NCBI GenBank assembly: GCA_038801785.1
Contig: JAULTD010000001.1
Coordinates: forward strand, 441,568 to 505,567
From: Candidatus Methanomethylicaceae archaeon GD_Cm_T35_P0_bin.15
Lineage (GTDB): Archaea; Thermoproteota; Methanomethylicia; Methanomethylicales; Methanomethylicaceae
Direction: 5' to 3'
Length of the DNA stretch: 64,000 nucleotides
Position numbers and translations under genes: made by a program. Under the pieces are notes generated by a model, which was not told where the DNA came from, made no database searches, and saw only the letters and a list, made by a program, of their open reading frames with translations. Below, piece after piece: positions 30,288 through 48,793 of this stretch; position 1 is the stretch's first letter; every line of letters starts with the position of its first letter.

Positions 30288-30328
30288 ATATAACGTCGTG
30301 ATAGAGTGATTACTTCGTTTACGCTGAT

Positions 30329-31358
30329 TTATGAGAAATGTTTAGCGACCCATTTAGGCTCGGCGATTGATGAGGAATTAGTTCCAGCGAGTATAAGAAA
30401 TGACTTTGCAAATTCCCTAAGTAGCCCGGCATGAGACAGAGTTTTAACAGCAAGAGCTTCATTAAATAAATACTTCCTAGTTAAATCTCCGGAGAACGGA
30501 GTAGAAATCCAGTTATGTAAATAGTAATTTTCACCTTCATCAACATCACTAAATAGAGTAGTAGCAAATCTGTAATCCGGGAAACAATAGTAATGTTGTA
30601 ATTTGGAAAAACCGGCTAATTTCAGTTTCAAGTCTAATTCCCTTTTGCTAAAAGTGATTATCCCGGGTTTACTTGGGGATCCTTCGATACCATTAAAGAA
30701 CTTCCCAGTGAGATCTTCAGTGTAGCCACACCAGTATTTAATGCCCAGCCTATCTTCAATAGCGAGAACAAGAATCCCGTCAGGCCTTAGCGCGGTTTTT
30801 GCGTGTTTCAATACCAATAAAGCAGATCTCTCGGGCTCTGCAATATCAACAATTTTAGGTGAATACTCCAATACGCCGACTAATACCACAAGATCATACT
30901 CGGGCTTAAAACAAATGCGCATAAAATCAGAGTTATAAATTGTAACATTCTGTAAATCTCTGCACCTTTCACGAGCGATTTTTGATCGGATAAAAGACCC
31001 TTCTACACCTACCACATTACGAAAGTTTTCACCCAAATATCGAGTGATGGCCCCACATCCAGAGCCTAATTCCAGAACATTTAGCGCTTTAGGTAAATCA
31101 AGAGCTTAGTATATTTGAGCGCCCCATGCCGAGGTGACATCGAGTCGGCCAATCGCAAGTTTTCCTTTCGAGCTCTTCCGAATTATCTCGCAAATCACTA
31201 GCATTTTTTAATATGGCATATATTTGATTTTCAGTAAATGCACCATCGGAATATGTGAAAGAACGTTTATCATCAGTTAGAACATAAATACCGCTCTCCC
31301 AATCATAGGTAAAATCGTCAAGGGCATAACTGCCGTTAGTTTTCACCGAAGACACCAC
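30329..31358 (-). pseudogene. Class I SAM-dependent methyltransferase split by a frameshift near 31098-31110 (N-terminal 86-aa ORF 31098-31358 plus C-terminal 235-aa ORF 30329-31036)
   Basis: SAM motif I 'VLELGSGCGAITRYLG' lies in-frame with the downstream ORF but directly after a stop codon and before any start codon. The upstream ORF ends 1 nt out of frame. Confidence 0.55.
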
Positions 31359-31764
31359 ATAACACCTTATACTAAGCTAGATTTATTGGAACTTTAGCAT
31401 TTATAAAAAGAGGGGGTAATCCCGCATATTTTAAAAATACGCCTCACAAACGGATTAAAACACTAAGATCCTCATCGCGCGATTAAGAGCATATCCAACA
31501 TAGTGATTGGACCATCACTATCGATCAAACACGGCGAGTATTGAGTGAAGCGAAGGGTTCCGCAATTTAATTCGTGAAGTGAGCATCAGAAAAGATGAGT
31601 CGGCCAAGCGACAGGCTAACAATCAGAACATCCGCAGACACGGGGGTAAGAAAGATTAGTCCGCAGATACTGATGCGATCATCACGTTAGAATCAAACGT
31701 TCTCAATCATATATTTTGCAGATCATGCGCGACCTGAGGATAGAACTTTTGGAAGTTTAGTGTC

Positions 31765-32266
31765 TTAAACCGTTACTCTCCCCTCGAAGGGCAGAAGGCG
31801 GATCAAACCACAATTCATCTGCCGTACAGAACCTCTATAATATATTTTGCGTAAGGGTAAAGCTGATCCAACTGTTTCCGGGACAGGAAAGCAGAAGATA
31901 CCTCGGCCAGGTCGGACTTTGACAGCAGGTTTAGTCGAGCATAAGCAAACAGAGACGGCCAGAATAACCAACGTTCCAATAATCCAATTAATGTGTAGAA
32001 ACACCATCATGAGCACTACTGATGAAGGGATTGCTGCAAGGATAAGGGAGGAGGCCCGACAGGCAGTATAGCCTATGCGGCGGATCATGAAGTATACCAC
32101 GAACAACGCAACGAATAGACCTGAGATGTAGGTGAGGTTGCGGATCCTCCCGGTGGAGAGGCCGTCAAGGACGGCGACCTCGTTGGAAAGGGAGAGCGCG
32201 CGGGCTAGGCAGGAGCCGATGAAGCCTGCCCCGCTGGTGAGGAGGATCCTTTTTGCTGCGTATCAT
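31765..32266 (-). pseudogene. Chimeric remnant: epimerase 5' fragment (32110-32266, frameshifted at an A5 run) fused to a flippase 3' fragment (31765-32106). Both are diverged duplicates of the genes at 26742-27695 and 27814-29277
   Basis: The translation 'MIRSKK(I)LLTSGAGFIGSCL..' matches 'MMRDKRVLITGGAGFIGSCL..'. '..VYFMIRRIGY..IPSSVVLMMVFLHINWIIGTLVILA' matches the flippase C-terminus. ~100 bp are identical at the nucleotide level. Confidence 0.7.
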
Positions 32267-32329
32267 AAGGTCACCTCAGACATTAATGGTGTAAAAGTAT
32301 TAAAAAGAACCTATGCTTGGATCTGAGCG

Positions 32330-32405
32330 GGGCAGAAAGCGAAGGGCGCTTGAGAACGGGATGGCGAATCGAAGGACGGGCTCAATATAATCCCCACCTA
32401 GTCAT
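32330..32405 (-). pseudogene. Remnant of the 5' end and upstream region of a DUF457 hydrolase gene (duplicate of 26560-26640)
   Basis: 'gaacgggatggcgaa.tcgaaggacgggctcaatataatcccc' matches 'gaacgggatggcgaagtggaggacgggctccatataatcccc' at 26585-26630. Confidence 0.55.
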
Positions 32406-32529
32406 TGCGGCGGTGGAGCCGATAAGCTGTGAGGTGGCAGGGCACCTTCAGTGGGGGCTACCCAAGATATTGAGTTGCTCCTTTTTAGTCTCAGGGCATC
32501 AGTGAGGATACGCAGTGTGCACGTCAACC

Positions 32530-33483
32530 TTATTTAATAATTTGTTTCCTAAATGCGCGTATTCTGCATATGGCAGCATATAAAAACCCAGCGAACCCGC
32601 TTGCATAAACTATAAACTCATCTAGGTTATCGAACTTATCGCCAGCATGAATTCTTTTCAGTTTGAGCGGATGAGTATCATGTGTATTAAACCCAAAATC
32701 GACAGTTAGACCAAAGTCATATCCCGCAGCCATACACAATTGAACCTCTCTATCAGAATAGTCGCCGTTTGGATATGCGATTGCGTTTATGATCAGACCA
32801 TACTCTTTTTCGAGTATGCGTTTCGAGGCAAATATTTCATCGTATGCTTCGTCAGTATTGCATTGCGTTAAGCAAGGATGAAATAAAGTATGAGACTGAA
32901 AGTTTACGTAGGGCAACATTTCGTAAATTTGCTTTTTTGACAAAGCGTGTGGAGTGTCATAGCCTTTTTCATTTTCGAACCCAATCTTCTTCAGGATTTG
33001 GAGTCGTTTATTATTTGAAACTTTTTTCAGTTGCTCAGTTGTAAGCGGCAGATATGCTTCGTTAGATTGTGCTTCTTTGAACCAAAAGTGTCTGTTAGTA
33101 TTTGCAATACCAGAACATAGGAATATTGTTATTGGAACACCATACTTTTTAAATATCGGAAGTAGATCGTAGTTGCTCTTATGCCCGTCATCGAAGGTGA
33201 TCACAAGTGATTTTTTGGGGAAGCGTTCTTTTCTTCTGTATAAATCGAAAAATTCGTTTAAGCTTATTATCTGGTAATTATTCACCAAGTATCTAAACGT
33301 TTTTTCTGCATTCTTAGGATCAATTTCATGAAAGAAGAGTATAGTAACTCTATTTTTTTGAAGGGTCTCCCTAAATATAAAAGGCAACCCCGAGAACCTA
33401 AGGCATAGATATATAAGGCGTCTGATCCGAATATTTTGCCTCGCATAAACCAGCAACTTGGTTAACACCTCTGAAATCGACAT
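32530..33483 (-). CDS. Polysaccharide deacetylase (NodB-homology, CE4 family)
   Basis: NodB motif 'VITFDDGHKSNYD'. Conserved His/Asp pattern ('HTLFHP'). Low GC (~35%). Confidence 0.8.
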   Translation of the reverse strand: MSISEVLTKLLVYARQNIRIRRLIYLCLRFSGLPFIFRETLQKNRVTILFFHEIDPKNAEKTFRYLVNNYQIISLNEFFDLYRRKERFPKKSLVITFDDGHKSNYDLLPIFKKYGVPITIFLCSGIANTNRHFWFKEAQSNEAYLPLTTEQLKKVSNNKRLQILKKIGFENEKGYDTPHALSKKQIYEMLPYVNFQSHTLFHPCLTQCNTDEAYDEIFASKRILEKEYGLIINAIAYPNGDYSDREVQLCMAAGYDFGLTVDFGFNTHDTHPLKLKRIHAGDKFDNLDEFIVYASGFAGFLYAAICRIRAFRKQIIK

Positions 33484-33504
33484 AGTTTGATCGCTAGTCG
33501 CGCT

Positions 33505-34593
33505 TCACCACACGTCTGACTGAAAAAGAGACCAACTCTCACTAAATCTCGTGTCAACTCCACCAACGAAATATGCACTGTCGTTGAAATTAGAAGAGAT
33601 GGGCTTGATTAATAGGCCAGGGAGTTTGCTTTTACCGACTAATTTCATCGCTTTTAATAATCGTACCATTCTATCGCCAGAATATTTAAAACCACTTTTC
33701 CGAAAGTTCAATAACTCCCCCTGATTACGAGTAAAGACAGGCACCAGTATACTGGGGACCAATACTTTTTCAGATATTCCTTTGATTAGACGTATAAAGT
33801 GGTCCGACTTTAAGTATGCATATTCCATCAATGAATAATATTTATTGCTAGTTTTTTGCAATGCAAGATAGCCAGTAGTTTTACCTCCTTCTCTACTATA
33901 TGCATAAACATGTTCGTAAGGACTCCCCCCGAATCGCCAAGTATAAAATTCTTTGTCTCTGATATTGCGAATCTTACTCTTTTCCGTGAATGATTGCATT
34001 AAACTATATATCTCACTAATTTTTAATTCATTTGTAATCTCAAACATTACATTGTTTCGTTCAGACCTGATTTTAGCATCTGAATCACTCTCATAAATAA
34101 GCTTTTTCAAGCCATTTACTGGATAAAAAGAGTACATGTATTCCCGTTCACCCACAGAAATGAAGCCACACTTTAGGTAACCAGCGGTAGATGCTTCATT
34201 TGACGAAAGGCTTAGTAAAAATCGAATATTCGAATTTTCACGCATATCTTCGAAAGCATAGTTAGTAAGGCTGGAAAAAAGTCCTTGCCGCCTAAAATCT
34301 GGATGAACGATTGTGTCAGCTGAAATTCCGACCAAGAATTCGTCACTATTGCAGGTAAGCTTCTGAATTACAAAAGAACGCTGAGCGATAATACGATCCC
34401 CATAGAGAACGAGATATCTAAACGGTCTTTTAGTGTAGGGGTTGCTTTCATAAATCCACTCAACTAACTTTTTCCTCTCATTGAAATTTTTATTTCGCCA
34501 TTGAAGGCCTAGAAATTCAACTAGTTGATCTTTTAAACTAGAATCGTACCTACAGATGCGGACTTTAGGCATATCTTGCATTCCCCTTAGCAA
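33505..34593 (-). CDS. GNAT-fold acyltransferase, two-lobed (FemAB/CelD-like) family
   Basis: 'HPDFRRQGLFSSL' GNAT motif A. 362 aa. Very low GC. Confidence 0.5.
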   Translation of the reverse strand: MLRGMQDMPKVRICRYDSSLKDQLVEFLGLQWRNKNFNERKKLVEWIYESNPYTKRPFRYLVLYGDRIIAQRSFVIQKLTCNSDEFLVGISADTIVHPDFRRQGLFSSLTNYAFEDMRENSNIRFLLSLSSNEASTAGYLKCGFISVGEREYMYSFYPVNGLKKLIYESDSDAKIRSERNNVMFEITNELKISEIYSLMQSFTEKSKIRNIRDKEFYTWRFGGSPYEHVYAYSREGGKTTGYLALQKTSNKYYSLMEYAYLKSDHFIRLIKGISEKVLVPSILVPVFTRNQGELLNFRKSGFKYSGDRMVRLLKAMKLVGKSKLPGLLIKPISSNFNDSAYFVGGVDTRFSESWSLFQSDVW

Positions 34594-34854
34594 GTCTTAA
34601 CCATCAAAGCATCAACAGATAAATAAAAGATCTAAATTGTTCTCCACCTATCTTTTGTGGTAAATCATTGATAGTTTTAGCCGAGACTTCATTTTACTCG
34701 ACTATGTTTTATGTCTTTGCATTTGTATAATCTCCCCGTTTTTTCAACAGGAGTTTTGTTACGCCAAGCCAGCCCTCGACTCTATACGATGCTGTAGAAA
34801 CATCAGATATGAGTTTATTAGGTGTTTTATGTTCGCAAGCTATGCTAGTCAAAT

Positions 34855-35949
34855 CTAAAGATTTTCTATGACGGAGTTAATCTTATTAGATATTTTTTTC
34901 CAATCAAACAAGTCAACTGCCAATTTGCGAGATTGCTCAGACATTTTACAAAGCTCTTCATCGGATAACGCCTTAAGATATCGAAAGCCTTCAATAAGAT
35001 CGACGCACTTGTTAGAACGAGCTACAAAACCACAGCGATATTGTCTTGTTAAAAAGGATGCGTCACCGACATCAGTTACTAAAACGGGCTTTCCCATTGC
35101 CACATATTCAGCGAATTTTGTAGGAGCGGCTACGGCAGTTGCTACGTTAATTGGTCTTGGCAAAACCAAGACGTCGCAAGCCGCATAATACTTGGGAATC
35201 GCCTCTCTCGACATGCTTGGCAGCTTAATAATATCGCGCTTCCTCCAAACAGAATTACCACCGACTATAAGAAAAGCAAACCGTTCATCGTTTGTTGCAT
35301 GTGCAGCGTTAATAAATTCTTCAACTCCTTGCCAAGGTTGCATACCACCAATGTAACCTATCACGAATTTCTTATCAATACCAAGCCTAGTACGTGTTGG
35401 TTGGGCTCCATCGCCAATAGGTTTGAATCTCTCCAAATCGACGCCATTAGTTATATATTCCATTTTATCATAACTAGTGTCATATCTGATTCGATTATAT
35501 TGCATCATAGTTTTAGAAACACAAAAAACTTTATCAGACGTCTCCAAGGCAATTTTCTCCATTAAAAGAGCGGTGTTTGACAATATGTTTTTTTTCCAAT
35601 AGTCATTAGAGAGCAATAGTTCATCCCGAGCATAACCATGCATATCAAATATTTGTGGTACGCGTTTAACGCGTAAGCAAGAAAGGAAAGCAGGCAAACA
35701 CCTGTTTGCAAAAATCAGTTGGGGCGAGTGTTTGCGTATCAAAGCGTTTATTTTTACTGCTGCATCTAGTCTAAATCTAGAAACAGCCATAGTTTCATCA
35801 AAGTTATTATCGGTTGTTCGCCTGGTGCTTAAATTAATTAACTTAACATCATGGTTAAATGATTTAAGCATCTGCGTAATCTTTAATATGCGTATCCACA
35901 TCGAGTCTTGGGGATCACATGGGCCTATACAAATTGAAAGAATTTTCAA
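34855..35949 (-). CDS. Glycosyltransferase family 4 (GT-B, retaining)
   Basis: C-terminal 'FAEYVAMGKPVLVTDVG' (E-x7-E-like) and 'IGGMQPWQG' are typical of GT4. Confidence 0.8.
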   Translation of the reverse strand: MKILSICIGPCDPQDSMWIRILKITQMLKSFNHDVKLINLSTRRTTDNNFDETMAVSRFRLDAAVKINALIRKHSPQLIFANRCLPAFLSCLRVKRVPQIFDMHGYARDELLLSNDYWKKNILSNTALLMEKIALETSDKVFCVSKTMMQYNRIRYDTSYDKMEYITNGVDLERFKPIGDGAQPTRTRLGIDKKFVIGYIGGMQPWQGVEEFINAAHATNDERFAFLIVGGNSVWRKRDIIKLPSMSREAIPKYYAACDVLVLPRPINVATAVAAPTKFAEYVAMGKPVLVTDVGDASFLTRQYRCGFVARSNKCVDLIEGFRYLKALSDEELCKMSEQSRKLAVDLFDWKKISNKINSVIENL

Positions 35950-36255
35950 TTTTAATACTTTAATTAAGTTTTTTAAATATACGATATATCAAGATAAAGT
36001 TATCGTGGGTCTCCGGCATATATTGCATGTAATGAGGCGTTATGCAGAATAACCCTTCTTATGCAGCTCATAGTAGTAACACTAGACACGCGTACAGATT
36101 AGTTACAAATACAGGCACGAAAACGGAGGGTCTTTCTGCCAATAGAACGGCGCTCTCGACCCAATATCTATAAGATTAGAATTGCTAAACTAAAGAGATA
36201 GTTATAAAGGAGGGCATCATCTATAAATTTAGAGGCATAATTTAAATAAAAACAG

Positions 36256-38430
36256 TTATCCCCATATTTCGGAATATCCATTATCGTATAACTTATTTTC
36301 GACCTCTAGTCGATCAAGATAAACATTAAGCGGAAAGGCGACGGCTGTCGAATCTACACCTAATTTTTCAATAACGTTATAATACCTAAGGAAGACATGA
36401 CCAACTGTGCCGTCTTGTTCAAAAAAAGTTATGATATGACGGATGCTCGCAGGAGGGATGCCCCCCTGACTTATTAATCGAGAAGCACTGCCAGAATCAC
36501 AATAAATTATTGTTCCTTCAACCATCTGATTGCTTAACCAACTACTAGCACGAGATTCACCAGCATGGACATACCTTAAATGATAATCAGCGCCTGTGGA
36601 ACTCAACTGTACAGTACTAGGTTGGTTAAACAATTGATAGTGAAGACCACTAGTTACGGCAAAATAGGGAATTAAAACGAGAAGTATGATAAAGACGGCC
36701 CTCTTCATTTGGAATAATTTCGCTATTCGTATACCACCGAGAACGAAAAAAATAGATAGAACAGGCGTCATCATGAAAAAGAGACGGCCCATATCGTATA
36801 CTTTGAGACATAAAGGCACTACCACAGATACCATCAATATTGCAGAACAAACGCAAGATAAGATGAAAAAGCTAAAATCAAGTTTGGATTTTAGAAAAGG
36901 AGATTCAGATTTATGAGAAATAGGTAATGGATAACGCTTTATTAAAATACTAATTATACCTACCCCAATAAAGGCGATTGCCGCCCAAGAGGAGATGCCC
37001 TCTATCACGTACGGAATGCCTTTCGTAAATTTGGCGCCAAAAAGAGATGTCGCACCGCCGCGCGAACTAACATTAAAGAACTCATCGAAGCCCGTCAGAA
37101 TGCTATAAAAAGCGTGTGTGCCAACCTCAAGAGGGGCATAAGTAACATAACTGTACCAAATAAAGGCGATCACGGAACAACTGGCGATTACTTTTATTGA
37201 GATGGGATTTCCTGCATATTTTAGTGGGTTTGAGTCACGATCATCTAATTTACATGAGAGATCTAAGTTTGCTTTTCTAAAATTGTAAATAAGATTAACC
37301 GCTATCCACATAAATATAAGAATACCGAGGAAAATATAGGCGCTAGTATAATGCGACACAACGCAAGAAAAGGCAAAAATAACTAACAAAATGTTTTTTT
37401 TAAAGGTATGTATTTTATCATTAAATAGAACCAGAATAAAAATAGCAAAAAAGAGTATTGCAATATTAGTCCGGGCGCTAGCAGCGGTATTGAAATAAGC
37501 ATATTGTGAGATAAAAAAGAATGCGGCTAAATAAGAGTAAAAGTTTGTCAAGTATCTTCTCGATATGCTATACACCGCCAAGGGCGAAATTGAAAAGAGG
37601 AGGGGATACAATATTTTGAAAAGCGATTCGCTTTCCAGATTCAGAAACTCTAGGTAAACCGTGGGGAGCAGAGTAACGCTCAAGCAGGCATTTAGAATAT
37701 TGTTTTCGAACATTTCCCAGTGTTGAGCTTGGAAAGTTTTACGGAAGAAGTAGTATTCCCGATGTGTATCAATGCCGATTATAAAATCTGACCTTAAACT
37801 CAGCAATATCATAACAGAGATGCCTATGAGGAGCAGACTTAAGGGATAAACTCTGTCGGAAATCGATTTACGCCATACAGACATTGAGATTAAATAAAAA
37901 CATATAAGTAGTAGAAGGGCGATGGACATAACGTTATTATTATGTGTATTAAACACATAACTTCCAAAAACTCCGAGCAATGGAAATATACCAGCCACAA
38001 GTAAAGCGAATTTATCATTCATAGAAATGACTGGGTTAGGATAAGGCATACGATCTGCACCACGGTTTCGCAAATAAGAGAGAACCAGCAACACGATAAC
38101 AACCACATTAAATGGACCGAGGAGAGAGGATATAGCTAAAGGCGTGTTTGAAAATAAGGATCCTATCGAATTCATAATTAATCCAAAACATATCGAGAAA
38201 GCTATGCTTAGAGCTACGCTTAAGACGATTTTTTCAGTCACTGTAAGAGCGGGGATTTTTAGCCTAGAAAGAATAAGGGCGCCAGGGAGAATGGTTAAAA
38301 GAATAAAACCTGAGACCTGCCTAATAATTGGGATGTCAAAAATAATGCTGGCATTCGAAACTACTAAAAAGTTTAGTATAACTATTAAGTACATGCACGA
38401 TTTCGATTTCCAGCCTAATTTCAGCTTCAT
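36256..38430 (-). CDS. Large polytopic membrane protein (>=14 TM) with a C-terminal ~170-aa extracytoplasmic domain; candidate glycan polymerase or ligase
   Basis: 724 aa. Hydrophobic throughout the first ~550 aa. Located inside the glycan cluster. No WWDYG motif, so it is not called AglB. Confidence 0.45.
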   Translation of the reverse strand: MKLKLGWKSKSCMYLIVILNFLVVSNASIIFDIPIIRQVSGFILLTILPGALILSRLKIPALTVTEKIVLSVALSIAFSICFGLIMNSIGSLFSNTPLAISSLLGPFNVVVIVLLVLSYLRNRGADRMPYPNPVISMNDKFALLVAGIFPLLGVFGSYVFNTHNNNVMSIALLLLICFYLISMSVWRKSISDRVYPLSLLLIGISVMILLSLRSDFIIGIDTHREYYFFRKTFQAQHWEMFENNILNACLSVTLLPTVYLEFLNLESESLFKILYPLLFSISPLAVYSISRRYLTNFYSYLAAFFFISQYAYFNTAASARTNIAILFFAIFILVLFNDKIHTFKKNILLVIFAFSCVVSHYTSAYIFLGILIFMWIAVNLIYNFRKANLDLSCKLDDRDSNPLKYAGNPISIKVIASCSVIAFIWYSYVTYAPLEVGTHAFYSILTGFDEFFNVSSRGGATSLFGAKFTKGIPYVIEGISSWAAIAFIGVGIISILIKRYPLPISHKSESPFLKSKLDFSFFILSCVCSAILMVSVVVPLCLKVYDMGRLFFMMTPVLSIFFVLGGIRIAKLFQMKRAVFIILLVLIPYFAVTSGLHYQLFNQPSTVQLSSTGADYHLRYVHAGESRASSWLSNQMVEGTIIYCDSGSASRLISQGGIPPASIRHIITFFEQDGTVGHVFLRYYNVIEKLGVDSTAVAFPLNVYLDRLEVENKLYDNGYSEIWG

Positions 38431-38460
38431 GTTTGTAGATTAAATAAGTTTTCCCACCGT

Positions 38461-39642
38461 CTAACCATGTTCAACTATAACCGCTCGATACAGTTCTTCG
38501 ATCTCATTAAGAACGCTATTGAGAGAAAATTTAGAGCCCACCATGCTTCTTGAACGTTCCCCCATAATGCTACATTGTTCAGGATTACTTAGGAGATATG
38601 TCATTTGTGTACACAACTCGGAGACGCTACCATCTTTAAAAATTAACCCTGTTATGCCATCTTGTACAAGGTCTTGCATGGATTCTACATCTGACGCGAT
38701 AACAGGTCTAGAACAAGCATTAGACTCTAGCACCACCATAGGAAAAGCCTCATATCTGGAAGGCAACACTACAAACTCGGAATCAACGTATGCTTCGAGC
38801 TTTTCTCGACCATACAGAGGACCTGTCAACAATATAAAGCGATCCAACCCTAGGTAGTTGATTAAACCCTCGATTTCTGCACGATAGCCATCATCAGGAC
38901 CTGCAATCACAAGCCGAATATTTGTCAATCCTGTACGATTAATCAGTTGTGCGTAGGCCTTAATGAGAATATCAACACCTTTAATCCGATGAAGGCGGCC
39001 TATAAACAACACAATTCGTGCATCATTAGATAGACCTAATTTTCGCTTAAAGAAGTTCTTGGGAGGGAGTTCACCGTATGTCGAAAGATCGACGACATTA
39101 GGAATAATAGCTATTTTTTCTTTGGGCACCCCTATTTGCATATATTGCATTGCCTCAGAAGTTGTTAATGCAATACATCTCGAAGCCGATTTCATTATTC
39201 GATAACCGACTGAATAATCATAGATGGCTTTGAGCCATCCTTTCCCCATCATTCGTGGGAGCGATCCATGAGCCTGAAAGAGGAAGGGGATGCTATATTT
39301 CTTAGCGTAAAAAGCTATGAGATTCTGGAATGTCGGGTGTCCGTGCAAGTGAATCAAATCAAATCGCTCTGACCTGAAAGATGTGACCAACTCAGGGGTT
39401 ATGAAAAGATTCAAGTTTTTTACGAGCGCCATTGACAAATTACGCATGTACCGTACCTTCACTCCATCTATATTTTTTTTATTTTCAGGAATTCTAGTAA
39501 CGCGATCCTTGGCGTCAGAGGTAAAAACAGTTACATCATGCCCTCTTTGGCGTAATCCTTTAGAAATCAGATAGGCACTTGTCGCCACTCCTCCAAAGGA
39601 ATGAGCGGGAACAAAAAACGGTGCTACGTGAAGGATGCGCAT
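38461..39642 (-). CDS. Glycosyltransferase family 4
   Basis: 'EAFPMVVLESNACSRPVIASD' E-x7-E motif. GT-B N-terminal 'MRILHVAPFFVP'. Confidence 0.88.
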   Translation of the reverse strand: MRILHVAPFFVPAHSFGGVATSAYLISKGLRQRGHDVTVFTSDAKDRVTRIPENKKNIDGVKVRYMRNLSMALVKNLNLFITPELVTSFRSERFDLIHLHGHPTFQNLIAFYAKKYSIPFLFQAHGSLPRMMGKGWLKAIYDYSVGYRIMKSASRCIALTTSEAMQYMQIGVPKEKIAIIPNVVDLSTYGELPPKNFFKRKLGLSNDARIVLFIGRLHRIKGVDILIKAYAQLINRTGLTNIRLVIAGPDDGYRAEIEGLINYLGLDRFILLTGPLYGREKLEAYVDSEFVVLPSRYEAFPMVVLESNACSRPVIASDVESMQDLVQDGITGLIFKDGSVSELCTQMTYLLSNPEQCSIMGERSRSMVGSKFSLNSVLNEIEELYRAVIVEHG

Positions 39643-39689
39643 CCCTAGAACGATCTGACTCGATCGGCTCTAGTCATGACCTCGGCGCT

Positions 39690-39900
39690 AAACATCTACA
39701 CTAGTCCAGTAGTCCACATTCCATTGGGGCACACTGCCCACCACGGAGTAGGTTTCCTGCGGGGATGTGAAGGCATACTGAACGCTGACCCAAGAATCAG
39801 CAATAGTCGCATCGACTGAAGATTCGCTCGGTACTGCAGGGACGGCTCCAAGTGAGGCAATTACTGCAAGTATTAGTAAAAAAGAATACTCGCCTCAAAT
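39690..39900 (-). pseudogene. Decayed 5' fragment of a DUF1616-family gene (paralog of 45266-46294); start codon mutated ATG->ATT
   Basis: The translation '..LILAVIASLGAVPAVPSESSVDATIADSWVSVQYAFTSPQETYSVVGSVPQ' matches 'LALAVIASLGAVSAVQGAPADATIAGSWASVQDAFVSLQDAYAVAGSVPQ'. Nucleotide alignment confirms it. Confidence 0.65.
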
Positions 39901-39997
39901 TCAATCTACATTAGTAAGCGTACGTTTTTGAGCATAACCTTCAACAAAAAGATTTCTCAAGAAGGTCTTTTATCAATAGGGGCACCAAACTATAGTT

Positions 39998-41002
39998 TCA
40001 GGTTTTTAGGAGATTAACTAAAGAGCATTTTATCCAAGAAAGAGGTCTAATAGCCAAATGATCAAATAAGTAAGTGGGCAAATTTACGCCTGTACACAGC
40101 TTAGTTATTCTATCCATTTCATCTGCGTTCAGGATGATATTAGGCGCCTCAGCGTTTGCAGCAACCTGATCCTCTGTCAGTGCTGCGGGTATTGGGGTAA
40201 ACCCCTTGTTAATAATGTAGGCTAACGCTAGTTGAGCGATACTCACCCCTCTTTCCTCAGATAGATTGCCTAGAAACTCAAACAAGGGAGTCGCTTTTTT
40301 AAGAAGAGATTGACGATTTACAAAATTAAAGGCCCTCGCCCTATCTTTTGCTAAGCGTTTGGCGTCATATTTGCCAGTCAATATCTCTCCTGCCAAGGGG
40401 CTGTAGCTAATTATTTCAATAGAATGTTTCTTGCAGTAGGGAATTATCTGTTGCTCTGCTCGTCTTGATAGAAGATTATATTCTATCTCATTAGCTATAA
40501 TTTCGCAGGAGGTTAAGTTCTCCTGAGCCCGTTCTAAGAGATAGCTACAGAAATTACTCACTCCAATATATCTAATCTTACCTTTTTTAACTAAGTATTC
40601 TAGAGTGCGAAAGGTTTCCTGGAATCTTATGAGGGGATTGGGATAATGTATAAGATATAAATCAATGTAATTTATACCTAATCGCCTCAGGCTACCATCA
40701 ACGGCTTTCACAATGTTATGCGATCTTAAATTCCATGGAGCGACCTTTGATACAATAACATAATCTTCCCTTTTGTAAGGTTTTAAGGCGTTGCCAAGCA
40801 ATTCTTCTGCTTTACCATTGCCATATGTTTCAGCAGTATCAAAGAAGTTGATGCCCTCATCCATACAACGACGAACAACTCGAACAATGGTATCATCAGA
40901 ATAGCGAATGCCGTGACCCCAAGCGCTGCAACCAAACTGACCTGATCCTTGACCCACTAAAGAGGTTTTTAAATCACTCTTACCAAATTTGCGATATTTC
41001 AT
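39998..41002 (-). CDS. Aldo/keto reductase family oxidoreductase
   Basis: 'FFDTAETYGNGKAEELLG' and 'IRYIGVSNF' are AKR signatures. Confidence 0.88.
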   Translation of the reverse strand: MKYRKFGKSDLKTSLVGQGSGQFGCSAWGHGIRYSDDTIVRVVRRCMDEGINFFDTAETYGNGKAEELLGNALKPYKREDYVIVSKVAPWNLRSHNIVKAVDGSLRRLGINYIDLYLIHYPNPLIRFQETFRTLEYLVKKGKIRYIGVSNFCSYLLERAQENLTSCEIIANEIEYNLLSRRAEQQIIPYCKKHSIEIISYSPLAGEILTGKYDAKRLAKDRARAFNFVNRQSLLKKATPLFEFLGNLSEERGVSIAQLALAYIINKGFTPIPAALTEDQVAANAEAPNIILNADEMDRITKLCTGVNLPTYLFDHLAIRPLSWIKCSLVNLLKT

Positions 41003-41050
41003 GGTTATACGATTGTAGACGCGATATTACTTAAGCACGAAATGATCGTT

Positions 41051-42325
41051 TTACCGTCTTTGTATAGGAGTTCTTGAAGCTTTAGAGCGACTGTGACGCA
41101 GATTGTCTAATTCTTTTTCAAACATTTCAACGAGGACGCTCCAATCATTACTTTCGATAGCCCTGCGAGCTTTCTCGCCCTCTTGTGTAATTAATTTGCC
41201 TTTAAGAGCGTATGCCTTTTCCACGACTTCTTCTGGATGATCAATATAGACAATACCGCTGCTCTCCCCAAATTCTTTTTGTATGCCAGGCAGCCTTGTG
41301 GCAATCACGGGCTTACTAGCGGCCATATACTCATACATTTTAATAGGAACAATATTTTGCATTACTACTTCATCAAGATATGCAGGTAAAAGACAAATAT
41401 CTGATGCAGACAGATAATCAAGAATCAAGTCAAACGGTTGCTTTCCAACAAGGATTAAGCGGTCTGCAAGATCATAAATATCACGAATTTTACAGAGATC
41501 AAAATAAGCTTCCCCCTCTCCGACGATCAGCATTTTCAAATGGCTTTTTGAGCGTTTAGTGTTAGCTAGACTTAAGGCAACTTCTTTTAATCCAGAAAAG
41601 CTATAGAGCCACCCCATAAAAAAGAGGACGATGTCGGCATCATCGATCTTGTATTTTACTCTTATTTCAGCTCGTTTTTCTGGATTTGGTCTATAGCGGC
41701 TCAGATCCACACCGCCAGGGATAATGACGACTTTAGCTGGATCTGCGCCCATCAATCTTACATAATCTACAAGACCTTTGTTTATTACAATAATTCTGTC
41801 CGACCTTTTTAGCACTGTACTCTCAATCGCTTTAGCGAGCGGTTGCCCTATTTTCTGGGGCACCAATGTATGCAAATGGTCTATCAGATAGTAAACGAAC
41901 GGGATACTCTTTTTCTTACACATATGTGACGCCAAATATGCATTAAGTATACCAAACGAGACGACTACATCAGGTCTAAATTCGTTAATCTGTTTTTCAA
42001 GCTCCAAGCGATGACTAAGTACCAGTGAGATGTACTCCAATAGGGGTAGTTGCACTATTGCAGGTCTGATCAAATCGATCTTTCCTTGTGGGACTACTTT
42101 CCAGCATCCATTGAATACCTCGCGTTTCTTTAAAAAGCGGTATTTTTTGTTTCTCCATAGTATGTCATAATCAATAACACGGATGTAATGGCCTCTCTCA
42201 GATAATCTCTCCATAAGGTGATGTTGTTGATGGGGGCCTCTCTCGATCCAATTCGATTCTTGCAGAACGAGTATGCGCATCTCAGAATTCGCAGGAGCGT
42301 TGGATCTCTGTCCAGTTATTAGCAA
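41051..42325 (-). CDS. Glycosyltransferase family 4
   Basis: GT-B fold. 'YEYMAASKPVIATRLPG' C-terminal motif. 424 aa. Confidence 0.75.
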   Translation of the reverse strand: MLITGQRSNAPANSEMRILVLQESNWIERGPHQQHHLMERLSERGHYIRVIDYDILWRNKKYRFLKKREVFNGCWKVVPQGKIDLIRPAIVQLPLLEYISLVLSHRLELEKQINEFRPDVVVSFGILNAYLASHMCKKKSIPFVYYLIDHLHTLVPQKIGQPLAKAIESTVLKRSDRIIVINKGLVDYVRLMGADPAKVVIIPGGVDLSRYRPNPEKRAEIRVKYKIDDADIVLFFMGWLYSFSGLKEVALSLANTKRSKSHLKMLIVGEGEAYFDLCKIRDIYDLADRLILVGKQPFDLILDYLSASDICLLPAYLDEVVMQNIVPIKMYEYMAASKPVIATRLPGIQKEFGESSGIVYIDHPEEVVEKAYALKGKLITQEGEKARRAIESNDWSVLVEMFEKELDNLRHSRSKASRTPIQRR

Positions 42326-43292
42326 ACCAGCGGTAAGTCTTGTTCAAGCCCACTTTAAACTCAGTTGTAGGATTATAATGCAATATCTTCTTTGCTTTCT
42401 CTATAGAGGCTAGCAACCTGAACTTCTGATCCCAGTCTCTTCTCTCCCTATATATAATTCCAGCATGATTTCCAGTAATCTCGTTTACCCAAGCAGCTAG
42501 ATCGTTTATCTTTATTTCGCGATTTGTGCCGAGATTGATTGCTTCACCAATAGCATCCTCGTAATAGGCCATTGCCAACAAGCCGTTTACGATATCACCC
42601 ACGTAAGTGAAATCACGAGTTTCTTCTCCAGTCCCTGTAATAGGCAAAGGTTGCCGATTCATGGCCCAATAGAAAAAGTTCGGGATTACATTACGATATT
42701 TGCCTGGAACCTCTCCCGGACCATAAGAGTTGAAGAATCTAGCGTTCACTATAGGCAGATCGTACAAGTTATAGTAACAATTAGTGTAGAGCTCACCTAA
42801 CATCTTAGTGACTTGATATGGCGTATACAATTTCATGGAAACATCGTGCTCTTCGAAGGGCATCTTTGAATCCGAACCGTAAATACCGCAACCGGAGGAA
42901 GAGTATATGAAACGCTCCACTCCAACAAGATGTGAGTATTCGAGCATCCTCAAAATCCCCATTCCGTTGACCATTAAATCTGTCTCAGGATTATCGACCG
43001 AATTCTGATTGGCAAAATGGGCCGCCAGATGGTATACGATTTCAGGTTTTCTTTTGAACGCCCGTCTGAGGTACTCTTCGTCCAATACACTGCCTTTAAT
43101 AAACCGTATCTTTTGTCCACGGGGAACATTCCACTCGTATGAGGAAGAAAGGTCATCCAAAATGATGACTTCTTTTGTATCCAAGGTGTTGAGTGTTCTG
43201 ACCAAATTTCCTCCTATAGCACCTGCTCCGCCTGTTACCAGAACAGTCTTTCCTTTAAAGGAGTTTTTTACTTCTTCCATGTTAATCACCAA
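42282..43292 (-). CDS. NAD-dependent NDP-sugar epimerase/dehydratase (extended SDR)
   Basis: 'VLVTGGAGAIGGNLV'. Catalytic 'YQVTK'. Confidence 0.85.
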   Translation of the reverse strand: MVINMEEVKNSFKGKTVLVTGGAGAIGGNLVRTLNTLDTKEVIILDDLSSSYEWNVPRGQKIRFIKGSVLDEEYLRRAFKRKPEIVYHLAAHFANQNSVDNPETDLMVNGMGILRMLEYSHLVGVERFIYSSSGCGIYGSDSKMPFEEHDVSMKLYTPYQVTKMLGELYTNCYYNLYDLPIVNARFFNSYGPGEVPGKYRNVIPNFFYWAMNRQPLPITGTGEETRDFTYVGDIVNGLLAMAYYEDAIGEAINLGTNREIKINDLAAWVNEITGNHAGIIYRERRDWDQKFRLLASIEKAKKILHYNPTTEFKVGLNKTYRWFANNWTEIQRSCEF

Positions 43293-44226
43293 TCCTGTAG
43301 TACCATCTCATCCAATCTACAGTTCTTCGAATGCCTTCCTCAGGAGGCACAGTAGGATTGTGTTTCAAATCACGTATTGCTTTCGAACAGTCAATGGTCT
43401 TTACCTTCGTAGTAAAGGGCTCACTCTCATTATACGAAACAAGCGAGTCATCCCTGCCAACAATCTTTAGCACTATGTCAGAATAGTCCTCAATACTCCG
43501 CTCCCATTCAGGTTTGCCTGCCACATTGTAGACTTCACCGGGTATGAAATTATTAATGATGTTTGCAAAAGTCATGCAGGAATCTTCGACATAATCTATA
43601 ATTCTCTTATGACCTTTGAAGACAACATACGGCTTGTTAAATAACGCGTGGTATATGAACTTGGGTATAAACCCCCTATAAGGAGTGTAATGCTCGCCAG
43701 GCCCATAGCAGTTCACAGGACGAACTCTTACAATCTCGGTTCCAAACATGCTGGCAGAGTTCATGCACATCAACTCGCCCGCCCATTTGGTAATGGCATA
43801 ATCATTCATCTGATAAGTTTCCTTGATTGGCTTGCACTCCATTATATCTTCGGTCATTACATCGTTATAATCGCCGTAAACCTCTGCTGAAGAAAAGAAG
43901 ATCATCCTAAACCTGAGTTTTTCCTGCAATCTAAGCATATTCTTTGTACCAATAACGTTGGTCTCCCAGAGATTTTCATAATAATCTTCGCCATTCCATC
44001 GACCGTACTCGGCTGCCAAGTGATAGACGTAATCAAACCGGTCTTTTTCAAAGACTTTTTCAATTTGTCGAAAATTACGTACATCTGCGCGTATGTAGTT
44101 ATCGCGATCATTATTGAAAAGATCGAGTGCGATAACACTATGACCGCGCTTTCTTAACTCATTTACTAAATTTGTACCAATAAAGCCTGCTCCACCGGTA
44201 ACGAGTATCCGTTGAGTATCCATCAT
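43282..44226 (-). CDS. NAD-dependent NDP-sugar epimerase/dehydratase (extended SDR)
   Basis: 'ILVTGGAGFIGTNLV'. Catalytic 'YAITK'. Overlaps the downstream epimerase by 11 nt. Confidence 0.85.
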   Translation of the reverse strand: MMDTQRILVTGGAGFIGTNLVNELRKRGHSVIALDLFNNDRDNYIRADVRNFRQIEKVFEKDRFDYVYHLAAEYGRWNGEDYYENLWETNVIGTKNMLRLQEKLRFRMIFFSSAEVYGDYNDVMTEDIMECKPIKETYQMNDYAITKWAGELMCMNSASMFGTEIVRVRPVNCYGPGEHYTPYRGFIPKFIYHALFNKPYVVFKGHKRIIDYVEDSCMTFANIINNFIPGEVYNVAGKPEWERSIEDYSDIVLKIVGRDDSLVSYNESEPFTTKVKTIDCSKAIRDLKHNPTVPPEEGIRRTVDWMRWYYRIGD

Positions 44227-44236
44227 ACGAACCTCC

Positions 44237-45214
44237 TTAACCTTTATTTTCCTTGTTGTTCTTGATACTGTATAATATAAGAGAGGTCATCGCCAGAAAC
44301 ATGCCCCCAATTGTCACACCTAAACAGACTATCGCCAAAGGTATACTGAAATACCGCGTCTGATTGAAGATTAGCAGTAAATAGCCTCCAAGTATGAGGC
44401 CTGCGGAAAACAAGGAGATCCCGGGGACGCCTAGGACTAACAAAGGACGCCGATGAACGGTCAGCTTCGCGATCGTATCGATAAGCTCGAGTCCATGTCT
44501 TAAAGGGCTCTTTTTCGAGGTTTGTGCCAGCCCATCATAAAGTACGGTTACAGGCACTTCCTTAATCTTCAGATTGTGCTCCTTAGCTATAGCCAGCTGT
44601 TCGGACTCAGTGCCGTAGCCCTCCACTTCACAGGACAGCATCGCCTCAAGGGCCCTCTTGGAATAGGCGCGGTAGCCGCTCTGGGTATCCTTAACAGTAC
44701 CTCCCCCGCTTAACGCATTGATTATGCGCAGCCCAAACCTGCGGTAGAGGGGCGCATCGGTCCAAGCGCCGTCAACGTAGCGAGAGCCCAGCGCGATATC
44801 GGCCTCGCCGTTCAGTACGGGCTCAATCAATAGCGGGATCTCATTCGGATCGTGCTGGCCGTCAGAGTCCAGCGTCACGGTCACGTCGGCCCCTATGTTC
44901 AAGGCGTGCTGGAACAGGTGCTTCAGGGCTACGCCTTTCCCCTGGTTCTTCTTGCTCGATATCACGTAGGCTTTCAGGGCCGAGGCTACCTCGCTGGTCA
45001 TATCTTCAGAGCCATCATCGTAGACCAGCACCTCGTCGACGTACTTCTGGGCTTTGATTATGACGCTGGGGAGAGTCCTGTCCTCGTTGTAGGCGGGTAT
45101 GCACGCAACGATCAGCTTGTGCTCGCTTACTGGAAGGGTGCGCTCCAGCATATCGCCCGTAACTCCCCGGCTACAAGTAACGCTTTTTGCCCTTACGTGC
45201 TCTTTACTTATCAT
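44237..45214 (-). CDS. GT2 dolichyl-phosphate sugar synthase-like glycosyltransferase (Dpm1/AglJ-like) with C-terminal TM helices. Mosaic GC: high at the 5' end, low at the 3' end
   Basis: 'IPAYNEDRTL', 'DDGSEDMT' and 'LDSDGQHDP' (DXD). Two C-terminal TM segments. Confidence 0.85.
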   Translation of the reverse strand: MISKEHVRAKSVTCSRGVTGDMLERTLPVSEHKLIVACIPAYNEDRTLPSVIIKAQKYVDEVLVYDDGSEDMTSEVASALKAYVISSKKNQGKGVALKHLFQHALNIGADVTVTLDSDGQHDPNEIPLLIEPVLNGEADIALGSRYVDGAWTDAPLYRRFGLRIINALSGGGTVKDTQSGYRAYSKRALEAMLSCEVEGYGTESEQLAIAKEHNLKIKEVPVTVLYDGLAQTSKKSPLRHGLELIDTIAKLTVHRRPLLVLGVPGISLFSAGLILGGYLLLIFNQTRYFSIPLAIVCLGVTIGGMFLAMTSLILYSIKNNKENKG

Positions 45215-45265: not shown

Positions 45266-46294
45266 TCAGAAGGGCGGCGACGTCACATTTACCCACAGGT
45301 GAGTCCACAGCCCGGTATAATCGAGCCTCTTTGTTGTGCTGTTGAAGGACCACAGCTCGAAGATTATCCGCTGGCTCGGGCCGGTCTTGGAAAGGGTCAG
45401 CTCCAAGGGATAAGTCCCGCTGCCGTTGTTGGTCAGAACCTTATCGAGCCGGAGCACCGTACTTGCGGGGGAAGGGTCCATCTCAGTCGAGTTATCCCCC
45501 ACTTTCACCAGGACCGAGTACCACATCGGCTCACCTACATGGTTCCCAACATAAGCGTACAGGTCGATGGTCTGGCCGGATACCACCTCCTTCGGGTAGT
45601 CGCTCAGCTTCTGGCCGGGACCCAGTATGCCGAGTTCCGAGAAGGACTCCCCGGTCCTCCCCGCGGCAACAGCAAGTGAGGCGGGCACCAGCGCAACGAC
45701 CAGGAGCACGGCGACAATCGCAAGGGCAGCATGCTCCATCGTAAATATCGTGGATTCCTCGCCGTCATCGCCAGCGCCCTCCCCTTTCCGGACCTTGGGC
45801 TTCGCTGTCTCTCCGTTTACCCTCACAACGCTGCCTCCCCTGACCCTCAGCCACGCCTTCCAGAGCCCGCCAGCACCGAACCTGAAGACCAGCCCGGCGG
45901 CGATAACCGCCCCGGCGGTGGCCGCGATCATGGCGACCGTCCCGTTCTGGTTCTGCCTTTCGCCTGCCTCCTTGACTGCCGCCATATCCCGCATGACCTC
46001 TTGAGCGATGGAGCTCGCCTCCTGCGCCAGCGTTGCAGAGCCGGCCGGGTCAGAACCAGCCATGGCCTCGGCGCGCAGCATCTTCTCTATCGCCTGGTTC
46101 AATAATTCTACATCCCTCTGCGGCACGCTGCCCGCCACGGCGTAGGCGTCCTGCAGCGACACGAACGCGTCCTGGACGCTGGCCCAGGAGCCGGCAATGG
46201 TCGCATCGGCCGGAGCGCCCTGCACTGCGGAGACGGCGCCAAGCGAGGCGATCACCGCCAGCGCCAATGAGAAGACGGGCAACCTCAGGTTCAT
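45266..46294 (-). CDS. DUF1616-family archaeal membrane protein (signal/TM N-terminus, extracytoplasmic C-terminal domain)
   Basis: C-terminal '..FSELGILGPGQKLSDYPKEVVSGQTIDLYAYVGNHVGEPMWYSVLVKV..' fits the DUF1616 pattern recalled from memory. High GC. Confidence 0.5.
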   Translation of the reverse strand: MNLRLPVFSLALAVIASLGAVSAVQGAPADATIAGSWASVQDAFVSLQDAYAVAGSVPQRDVELLNQAIEKMLRAEAMAGSDPAGSATLAQEASSIAQEVMRDMAAVKEAGERQNQNGTVAMIAATAGAVIAAGLVFRFGAGGLWKAWLRVRGGSVVRVNGETAKPKVRKGEGAGDDGEESTIFTMEHAALAIVAVLLVVALVPASLAVAAGRTGESFSELGILGPGQKLSDYPKEVVSGQTIDLYAYVGNHVGEPMWYSVLVKVGDNSTEMDPSPASTVLRLDKVLTNNGSGTYPLELTLSKTGPSQRIIFELWSFNSTTKRLDYTGLWTHLWVNVTSPPF

Positions 46295-46298
46295 CTCA

Positions 46299-47858
46299 TC
46301 AGTAAGCGTGCCTCTTCGGCCCCGCCACCACGATCCTGTACCCTTTCTCAGCCATGGCCCTCAGGCTTATAGACAGTTCTTCCGCATCATGCGAAGACAC
46401 CACAACGATCGCGGCAGGGGGCCCCACCTTCTCCGCCACCCTCTTCAGGGCGCTGCTTGCCGGCGCGTCCTTCGCTGCTTCCTGCACCGCCCGGTTTTCC
46501 AGGTCCAGCACGCTGCCCAGCCCGCTCCCCTGCTCACCGGCGCCAACAAGGTGGATGTCCCGCCTCAGGCGTAGGGGGTCCACCGGCTGCAGCACCCTCC
46601 CGGCGGGCGGCGCCACGGCGATGCGCTTGGTCAGCACCATCGATCTTATCAGGGCTTCCCGGGGGCTCGCCAGCCCGGCAGACTCGACCACCCCGCCAGA
46701 GTCGAAGGCGGCCATTGCGACAGGCACGCCCTCCCTCGCCAGGGTAAGCGCAGAGGTTATCAGGCTGTAGGCAAGCTCGTCGGCGTCCTCCGCGTCCTTA
46801 GCCGTCAGATCAGCCACAATGATCGCGGGCTGGACCTGCCCTCCCGCGAACTCCTTCACCACGAGCTCCTGGAGCCTGAACGTGTGCCTCCAGTCCACGT
46901 CCTTGACCCTGTCCCCCGGCTGGTACTCCCGGCTGCCGTAGTAGTCCACGCCGCGCCTCGAGGGCTTCTGAACCCTTATCGGGGGGGTAGCCATCGACGG
47001 ATAATAACCGGCGGCAGCCTGCTCCAGGTACTTCTCGGCGAGCCATTCCGCGTACCGCGCCTTCGGGATGACGTGCACGTCCAGGGGGTACAGCACCTGC
47101 CCCACGGAGACGAAGCCCCACGGATCCGTCACGGTCGCGTTAATCGCCACGTCGGACGGCGCGGCCAAGGGGGGCGTCACCGTCAAACTCCCCTCGTATC
47201 CCCCTCCCGCCTCCAGTGCGAGGGCGTCCGCGGAGACGGAGACCCACGGCTGCGCAGGCTCCATCTGCAGCGTCACCGGGATCTGCGCGCCTGTCCTGAG
47301 GCTGAGGGGGGCGCTCACCGTCTCCCTGACGAGGACGCGCCTCTGCGCCGTGGCGACGGAGATCGGCGCCCTCGGGATGTTCATGACGGAGTGGGCAAGT
47401 ATTCCTATCAAATATGCTCCACATAACATGCACGCCAGGATCAGCTCGGCCCTTGCCAGCACCAGCGATGTCAGGGACAGCAACGCCAAAGCGGTGAGCA
47501 GGGTCCGCGGCAAGGGGGCGATGCTCCTCCCCGCCCTGAACTTCCCCCCGGTCTGGGCCGCGCCCGCCGATTTAAGGCACGGCTCCATCCTCAGCAGGAG
47601 GGGCGCGGCAGCCGCTGCGGCTGCGTATGGCCCCGTAATAGGTGCAAGCAGCAGGGGCACAATGAACAGCGTCGCGAAGAGGAGCGCGAGCGCCTGCCCT
47701 GCACCCCTTATTTTTATCCGGTACATCCTAAAGGCGTGGGCGGCGAGCAGCAGCACTGCGAACGCTGACCCTGGCAGCCCGGCGGCGATGGACGAGGCTG
47801 CGAGCACGATCATTATGTATGCGTCCAGCGCCTTCCGCACCACAGGCCGCTCTCTCAT
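46299..47858 (-). CDS. DUF58-domain protein (MoxR partner, vWA-like fold) with N-terminal TM segments
   Basis: 519 aa. Its start overlaps the MoxR stop by 4 nt. 'DVDWRHTFRLQELVVKEF' is DUF58-like. Confidence 0.6.
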   Translation of the reverse strand: MRERPVVRKALDAYIMIVLAASSIAAGLPGSAFAVLLLAAHAFRMYRIKIRGAGQALALLFATLFIVPLLLAPITGPYAAAAAAAPLLLRMEPCLKSAGAAQTGGKFRAGRSIAPLPRTLLTALALLSLTSLVLARAELILACMLCGAYLIGILAHSVMNIPRAPISVATAQRRVLVRETVSAPLSLRTGAQIPVTLQMEPAQPWVSVSADALALEAGGGYEGSLTVTPPLAAPSDVAINATVTDPWGFVSVGQVLYPLDVHVIPKARYAEWLAEKYLEQAAAGYYPSMATPPIRVQKPSRRGVDYYGSREYQPGDRVKDVDWRHTFRLQELVVKEFAGGQVQPAIIVADLTAKDAEDADELAYSLITSALTLAREGVPVAMAAFDSGGVVESAGLASPREALIRSMVLTKRIAVAPPAGRVLQPVDPLRLRRDIHLVGAGEQGSGLGSVLDLENRAVQEAAKDAPASSALKRVAEKVGPPAAIVVVSSHDAEELSISLRAMAEKGYRIVVAGPKRHAY

Positions 47859-48793
47859 TCCGCCTTCGGGACGGGCGCCTCCTTCATCACGCCGTCGATG
47901 ATCGATCTGGGGGTCACGCCGTCGATCTCGGCCTCGGCCTTGACCCGTATCCTGTGCTCCAGCACCGGGAGAGCCAGCTGCTTCACGTCGTCCGGTATAA
48001 CGTAGTCCCTCCCCCTCATGAATGCCATGGCTCGGGAGCCCTTGTAGAGCGAGGTCGTGGCCCTCGAGCTCGGCGCCACCAGCACGTCGGGGTTCCTCCT
48101 TATCCTGTCAGCCAGGTCCGTGATGTAGCCGCGTATCCCGTCGGAGACGTAGACCCGCTTCACCGCCTCCCTAACCTTCACGATATCGCCGAGCGAGGCG
48201 GCCACCCTCACGTCCGGGCTGTCGATATAGTCGATCCTCTCCAGCACCCTTGCCTCCGCCTCCTTGTCGAGGTAGCCGCTCCAGATCCTGAACATGAACC
48301 TGTCCGCCTGCACCTCCGTAAGCTGGGACGTGCCCTCAAAGCCGTACGGGATCTGCGTGGCGATGACCATGAAAGGCTGCGGCACGGCGTGCGTCCGTCC
48401 TTCCACGGTGACCTGCCCCTCCTGCATCACTTCTAGGAGGGCGGACTGGGTCCGGGCTGTGGTCCGGTTGAGCTCGTCCGTCAGCACGATGTTCCCGAAG
48501 ACTGGCCCCGGTATGAACCTCGACTTGCCGTCCGGCGTGTAGAAGTAAAATCCGGTCACGTCAGAGGGCAGCATGTCAGGCGTGAACTGGATCCTCCTGA
48601 ACTCGCCGCCGATCGCCCTGGCGAAGGTCTTTGCGACAAGCGTCTTCGCGGTGCCCGGGAGGCCCTCAATGAGCACGTGCCCCCCGCTGAATAGTGCCGC
48701 CAGCATGACCTCCTTCACGTCGTCCTTCCCCAGGACCACTTTCGAGACTTCGTCTATGATCCTCCTCGGTACCTCGAGCAGCTCGGATGCCAT
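47855..48793 (-). CDS. MoxR-family AAA+ ATPase
   Basis: Walker A 'GLPGTAKT'. Walker B 'VLTDELNR'. 312 aa is the typical MoxR length. Confidence 0.92.
   Translation of the reverse strand: MASELLEVPRRIIDEVSKVVLGKDDVKEVMLAALFSGGHVLIEGLPGTAKTLVAKTFARAIGGEFRRIQFTPDMLPSDVTGFYFYTPDGKSRFIPGPVFGNIVLTDELNRTTARTQSALLEVMQEGQVTVEGRTHAVPQPFMVIATQIPYGFEGTSQLTEVQADRFMFRIWSGYLDKEAEARVLERIDYIDSPDVRVAASLGDIVKVREAVKRVYVSDGIRGYITDLADRIRRNPDVLVAPSSRATTSLYKGSRAMAFMRGRDYVIPDDVKQLALPVLEHRIRVKAEAEIDGVTPRSIIDGVMKEAPVPKAE

Follow-up and report, generated by a model that had tools for sequence, protein, structure and literature searches.

A disabled fragment of a DUF1616-type gene was found on the minus strand at positions 39672-39921 of the window, i.e. 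of the whole 64,000-nt stretch of archaeal DNA analysed here, within a strain-variable island of surface-glycan genes. The observed outcome is a displaced stub of an anchor gene, the edge of which falls 11 nt inside the preceding gene (DUF58). We regard it as probable, at odds of about three in four, that this stub is the relic of a second DUF58/DUF1616 junction, a fossil flank that additive, one-sided recombination and then deletion left behind in a low-GC island exchanged between strains.

The window has a GC content of about 0.63 and contains a block of 0.36-0.47 from ~27.4 to 44.5 kb. This low-GC (~0.40) glycosylation island (27400-44500), recognised by its composition and by the unrelated content at the same place in another strain (L070/L080, see below), encodes GT2, three GT4, epimerases, a flippase, a deacetylase, GNAT and DUF2206. 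All flanking and island genes given here with coordinates are read in minus-strand order. The right flank consists of the genes for a MoxR ATPase (47855-48793) and, downstream of it, DUF58 (46299-47858), whose 3' end is represented in the stub, followed by the intact resident DUF1616 gene (45266-46294, 342 aa), which borders the island and served as comparator, and by a GT2 gene (44237-45214). The resident DUF1616 protein matches PF07760 with residues 186-336 (E=2.6e-16) and carries N-X-S/T sequons. Within the island, module R holds epimerase, epimerase, GT4 and, as its last gene, an aldo/keto reductase (AKR, 39998-41002); module M holds GT4 (38461-39642), DUF2206, GT4, GNAT and a polysaccharide deacetylase; and module L holds a methyltransferase, a 151-aa ORF and the flippase (27814-29277). 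A second intergenic gap, at 31.8-32.5 kb, separates modules M and L, and the left flank continues with an epimerase (26742-27695) and then YdjM (26014-26625). The public gene calls start short for the GT4 (38461-39642, 328 aa) and the AKR (39998-41002, 288 aa); homologs span 97-100% of the longer ORFs of 393 and 334 aa, and the AKR gene is thus complete. A tRNA-targeted, site-specific integrative element was rejected as an explanation for the island, since the window lacks a tRNA, the borders of the modules show no att-like direct repeats, and none of the island ORFs scanned belongs to an integrase or transposase family.

The stub matches positions 46058-46309 with ~70% identity, a segment in which the final 11 nt of DUF58 and a spacer of 4 nt precede DUF1616 codons 1-79; the same composition was assigned to the stub by local alignment, blastn and a three-way alignment with the related locus L001. 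A self-blastn of the window aligned 39672-39870 with 46058-46261 in the same orientation (71% over 207 bp, E=2.3e-21), and the optimal local alignment ran from 39921 to 39672 against 46309 to 46058, beginning 15 nt 5' of the start codon and scoring 121 as compared to 19±2 for 500 dinucleotide shuffles (z=48). The protein-level comparison by tblastn covered residues 8-63 with 63% identity (E=3e-13). In the homologous frame the stub reads ..EYSFLLILAVIASLGAVPAVPSESSVDATIADSWVSVQYAFTSPQETYSVVGSVPQWNVDYW.., and the resident DUF1616 protein reads MNLRLPVFSLALAVIASLGAVSAVQGAPADATIAGSWASVQDAFVSLQDAYAVAGSVPQRDVELL. The alignment with the 5' end of the resident gene that a first-pass annotation of this DNA had reported, at both nucleotide and protein level, was thus reproduced, and its span of 39690-39900 proved real but slightly too short, as the homology extends to 39672-39921 and takes in a relic of the DUF58 stop. 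That annotation had named similarity of no more than a signal-peptide-like composition as the outcome that would speak against it. Scored alone, the portion past the signal peptide reached z=34 and the signal-peptide portion z=11.6, and chance or compositional similarity was rejected as the source of the match.

The relic of the last DUF58 codons and stop lies at 39911-39921 (minus strand), with GCT TAC TAA at 39919-39911 against GCT TAC TGA in the resident gene. This segment is a contiguous part of the optimal alignment, and scored alone it is not significant (z=3.9); 5' of 39921, local alignment into DUF58 gave no significant homology past 13-15 nt. Because the DUF58 stop and the spacer lie within the alignment, the source of the stub was the same DUF58/DUF1616 two-gene junction. 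On the 3' side the homology ends at codon 79 of 342 (39672), 30 nt short of the ATG of the GT4 gene. The stub has a GC content of 0.50 as compared to 0.665 in the gene, and a GC3 of 0.51 as compared to 0.84.

The reading frame of the stub is disrupted by several lesions. The start codon has changed from ATG to ATTG (39902-39905, minus strand) with a TAG directly upstream (39906-39908), which bears out the mutated start and the upstream stop noted before; ATTG is readable as ATG->ATT plus G or, equally possible, as a TTG start with a frameshift after it. The homologous frame is closed on the 5' side by a TGA at 39895-39897 and shifted by indels at codons 4-12. A further cluster of lesions, identified by alignment at 39696-39716 (minus strand), consists of a 1-nt deletion at codon 62 (~39716), a 7-nt deletion at codons 67-69 (~39704) and an AAG->TAG change at codon 71 (39696-39698), and there is no ORF of at least 40 aa in the homologous frame. 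With significant homology on the one hand and disabling lesions and truncation on the other, the stub is a pseudogene fragment of a DUF1616-type gene, stranded, as had been described, between the GT4 (38461-39642) and AKR (39998-41002) genes. The PF07760 profile spans only residues 186-336 of the intact protein, and neither the repaired stub peptide nor the overlapping small ORFs matched Pfam at E<=1; the stub is a relative of the DUF1616 gene and not an instance of the Pfam domain.

We also considered that the stub could be functional today: it might serve GT4 and DUF2206 as a promoter or leader, encode a small secreted peptide or form a structured RNA. It fills the sole long (355 bp) intergenic gap in a tightly packed row of genes, and an AT-rich run, TTCTTTTTTACTAATAC, loosely resembles an archaeal TATA element by eye, which makes it a putative element at most. 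These features are outweighed by a homologous frame that lacks a start codon and carries stops and frameshifts, by a TTG-started frame that yields only 35 unrelated codons, and by the lack of a second occurrence of the stub in the compared loci or in the metagenome scan. The small ORF reading was rejected, and so was the structured RNA reading, as the stub has no Rfam match at E<=1 and an ordinary folding energy (z=-1.1). A present function is very unlikely on these grounds. The stub is dead, without any sign of function, and is today merely part of the 355-bp spacer between AKR and GT4. Annotators should not take the 355-bp gap for a missing gene.

With regard to its origin, a simple explanation would be that the 5' end of the resident high-GC DUF1616 gene was duplicated locally and that the copy decayed in place by AT-biased mutation. 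The stub lies only 6.4 kb from the resident gene in the same orientation, the changes on its branch are strongly biased (41 GC>AT vs 7 AT>GC), and their distribution over the codon positions (18:11:27) fits GC-targeted neutral decay. However, in a three-way nucleotide alignment the stub was no nearer to the resident gene (68.7% identity) than to L001 (67.9%), whereas these two were 85.8% identical to each other. Sites that the stub shares with only one of the two numbered 16 and 14, and one codon common to the stub and L001 has been lost in the resident gene. This equal distance together with the codon shared with L001 argues for an outgroup ortholog and not for a recent copy. The pattern of substitutions also disagrees with simple decay. 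In the cleanly aligned codons 8-61, 22 of the 38 changes were synonymous when 14±2.5 were expected from a simulation with the same mutation spectrum (P=0.002), although a comparison of three taxa places the root no more precisely than on the long stub branch, and some of these changes may have arisen on the stem shared by the resident gene and L001. The amino acid was kept in 38 of 53 codons (P=0.007). By this synonymous excess, some of the divergence, and with it some of the GC3 loss, arose between functional genes. Moreover, a near-identical strain (L070) carries a different island at this place, and the whole island is therefore younger in this genome than the divergence of the stub. Taken together, we consider a local duplication unlikely.

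The stub thus descends from a diverged ortholog that is an outgroup to the resident gene and its 75%-identical relative at L001, and its low GC content is only in part the result of drift after inactivation. Two statements of the first-pass annotation are modified by this. The fragment had been described as a decayed DUF1616 gene, and its homology to such a gene holds, but it derives from the DUF58/DUF1616 junction of a diverged ortholog and is not a copy of the present high-GC gene, and the Pfam domain is absent from it. The AT drift described is evident from the GC content, but it did not follow inactivation alone.

Searches for the source of the stub returned few related sequences, and no genome in the searched collections contained an intact match. 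A search of 5.8 billion proteins yielded 17 homologs of the resident DUF1616 protein, and its N-terminus was common only to the resident strain group and P0002 (75% identical; locus L001). A scan of GTDB species gave nothing closer than 40% identity, and a metagenome scan with an alignment of the N-terminus as query gave only the sister strain L070. We also looked for a donor by way of the genes next to the stub, for which the best homologs were 51% (GT4) and 58% (AKR) identical; in the contexts of two GT4 homologs, DUF1616 genes were present within glycan clusters and did not adjoin the GT4 gene. No DUF1616 stubs were found in the compared portions of L001, L002 and L070.

The island content of the closest relatives shows that this region is exchanged between strains. 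L070, a metagenome contig of a strain also represented by L080, matches the window from 56294 to ~44500 with 36 differences in 11.8 kb (99.7% identity). Seventeen of these lie in the last 1.5 kb, so that SNP density climbs toward the island, and homology fades over the 3'-terminal ~250 bp of GT2 (window 44257-44500). Beyond GT2 follows a wholly different low-GC island (12039-20246 in L070, 8100-17070 in L080) with genes for ATP-grasp, a deacetylase, PHP, three GT4, a 549-aa protein and a GT2 on the opposite strand. L070 also contains a perfect 46-bp inverted repeat (14013-14058 and 15076-15121), by which part of the 3' end of the deacetylase gene is copied into the spacer before the next GT4, a small relic within that island. 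To find where the L070-type island ends on the left, exact-protein look-ups were made with YdjM, the epimerase, the 166-aa protein and PIN; all hits came from the strain of the window itself (Logan) or from a 5-kb contig that ends before the island. In L001, DUF58-DUF1616 is present at 82% nucleotide identity and is followed by yet another low-GC island, which has a DUF2206 gene and proteins only 23-30% identical to those of the window. With its conserved flanks, unrelated content, atypical GC and glycan genes, the region is a strain-variable glycosylation island of the replacement type.

Gene order on the right-hand side is conserved by comparison. The succession DUF58-DUF1616-GT2...GT4...DUF2206 is retained in both L001 and L002, MoxR being upstream in L002, and DUF1616 borders the glycosyltransferase block (MoxR-DUF58-DUF1616-GT2) in every relative with usable context, i.e. 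L001, L002 and L070/L080. This agrees with the earlier suggestion that a DUF1616 gene stood next to the glycosyltransferase block in the ancestral arrangement. The nearest reference context was that of a Methanomethyliaceae MAG, with a MoxR 75% identical. As the order is conserved and the islands are swapped, DUF58-DUF1616(-GT2) forms a long-standing right boundary of a replaceable glycan island. In numerous MAGs of Bathyarchaeia and other TACK archaea (GTDB loci L002-L047), MoxR and DUF58 genes were also found only a few kb away from DUF1616, often ~5 kb upstream on the opposite strand and, as in the window, directly upstream in L002, L003 and L039, which hints at a functional association of MoxR, DUF58 and DUF1616. 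One assembly, GCA_041890195.1, holds both a locus 99.6% identical to the left flank of the window (L082, window 25945-20941) and L001, in which DUF58-DUF1616 are only 82% identical; it either mixes two related organisms or represents one genome with a strongly divergent right flank.

The source of our sequence is metagenome-derived, and contigs of an independent assembly break at a 325-bp flippase repeat, which raises the concern that island variants of different strains were joined into an assembly chimera. Yet an independent Logan assembly (L079) was 100% identical over 17.5 kb from 49447 to 31905, i.e. from MoxR to the deacetylase and including AKR, stub and GT4; the order of these three is therefore not peculiar to one assembly. 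In addition, a chimeric join needs near-identical sequence, and the stub is 30% diverged from its sole homolog and its surroundings are unique. An assembly chimera is accordingly hardly credible.

The stub is one of several relics of flank genes, which supports its description as an internal recombination scar of the island, the others being located at 31815-32428. A tblastn comparison of all flank proteins with the island revealed four stubs and no others. The YdjM relic (32345-32428, minus strand) consists of 43 nt of the upstream region and the first ~14 codons and was identified by tblastn and by blastn (82% over 76 bp) with the resident copy at 26014-26625. The epimerase relic (32134-32253, minus strand) covers the first ~44 codons with 65% amino-acid identity and has a GC content of ~0.6, as compared to 0.45 at the 5' end of the left-flank gene (26742-27695). 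The flippase relic (31815-32137, minus strand) represents the last ~107 codons of the resident copy at 27814-29277, with 84% identity (94% over the last 141 nt) and a frameshift. A 113-aa ORF at 31765-32106 belongs to this flippase relic. Module M therefore lies between two flank relics, the DUF1616 stub and the YdjM stub, and the epimerase and flippase stubs adjoin the latter. The three left-hand stubs stand in a permuted order (YdjM 5', epimerase 5', flippase 3'); more than one event was therefore needed, and the history must be more complicated than the outline given below.

The left flank carries further irregularities. The epimerase gene at 26742-27695 is a mosaic in GC content (first ~300 bp ~0.45, rest ~0.67), which suggests a crossover inside this gene. 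Farther out, the last ~30 codons of the gene for a 166-aa protein (24262-24762) recur 4.3 kb away with a frameshift (19974-20069 vs 24274-24374, 81%). The two copies bracket a segment of patchy GC that contains a gene for a PIN-domain protein and several ORFs that match no family, and the stretch from 19974 to 24374 may be a second small variable region.

One could imagine that the island stubs (DUF58/DUF1616, YdjM, epimerase and flippase) act as internal homology anchors by which incoming DNA of relatives replaces a single module (R, M or L). If true, this would amount to a modular cassette system for surface-glycan variation in this archaeal lineage, a notion we rate as quite improbable.

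According to the preferred reading of the stub as a relic of a second junction, an older and smaller island corresponding to module M would once have been located directly between the DUF58-DUF1616 pair and YdjM. DNA of a relative would then have recombined homologously within or upstream of DUF58, while its far end, after AKR, would have been joined illegitimately ~11 nt before the old DUF58 stop, i.e. by homology-facilitated illegitimate recombination. Such an event would have added the block DUF1616-GT2-epimerase-epimerase-GT4-AKR and pushed the old DUF1616 gene downstream. Being redundant, the displaced gene would have suffered a deletion that reached from codon 80 almost to the GT4 start, and would have acquired indels and a nonsense codon. 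One or more comparable events on the other side would have added module L together with a new flippase, the 5' part of the epimerase and the YdjM side. Later, the composite island would have been passed from strain to strain by ordinary homologous recombination in its flanks, the right crossover falling in GT2. Neither a donor nor an ancestral genome carrying the sequence of the stub in intact form turned up in the searches; both the order of events and the illegitimate joint are therefore what we infer from the outcome.

Strain-variable surface loci of this general type are well known. Bacterial O-antigen and capsule loci vary between strains and are replaced by recombination in their conserved flanks, low-GC glycosylation islands occur in haloarchaea, and the O-chain clusters of Pelagibacterales are reportedly strain-variable surface-polysaccharide islands as well. 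The island described here shares with O-antigen and capsule-type islands a GC content below the genome average, a content of glycosyltransferases, epimerases and a flippase, and conserved flanks that enclose unrelated genes in near-identical strains, with SNP density rising toward the island. It differs from them in the identity of the flanks, which are MoxR-DUF58-DUF1616-GT2 and epimerase-YdjM, and in its host lineage, an uncultivated TACK-type archaeon (the window encodes an unsplit RpoB of 1111 aa). As a scar of recombination within a variable polysaccharide locus, the stub is of a known and ordinary kind; what is new is the lineage.

A parallel for the additive step is provided by the orphan immunity-gene arrays of the Vibrio cholerae T6SS and the orphan 3' ends of Rhs/CDI loci, for which sequential additive displacement by homology-facilitated illegitimate recombination was proposed (PMC5361080). 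As in these arrays, a conserved anchor gene adjoins a variable block, the incoming DNA would have been added and not swapped so that the older copy was displaced downstream as a fragment, and the composite would later have moved as a unit by ordinary homologous recombination. Unlike in these arrays, the relic consists of the 5' end of the anchor gene and the end of the preceding gene and not of an orphan 3' end or immunity gene, there is no apparent selective benefit in keeping the stub, and the host is an archaeon; the mechanism there is itself a proposal, and its transfer to the present locus would be by analogy. A DUF1616 (PF07760) membrane protein of Haloferax volcanii, HVO_2173, is an AglB-dependent N-glycoprotein (PMC8241124). 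The intact resident gene resembles it in its match to PF07760 and its N-X-S/T sequons, whereas the stub is confined to the lineage-specific N-terminal region, which is recognisable just in this strain group and L001.

The stub is useful as a dated marker, which shows that the glycan island of a little-known archaeal lineage was built in layers. It further shows that the DUF58-DUF1616 pair is a long-standing recombination boundary and that the DNA came in from a relative that belongs to neither of the two lineages sampled. Along with the L070-type strain, the stub documents the switching of surface glycans at the strain level in an uncultivated TACK-type archaeon.
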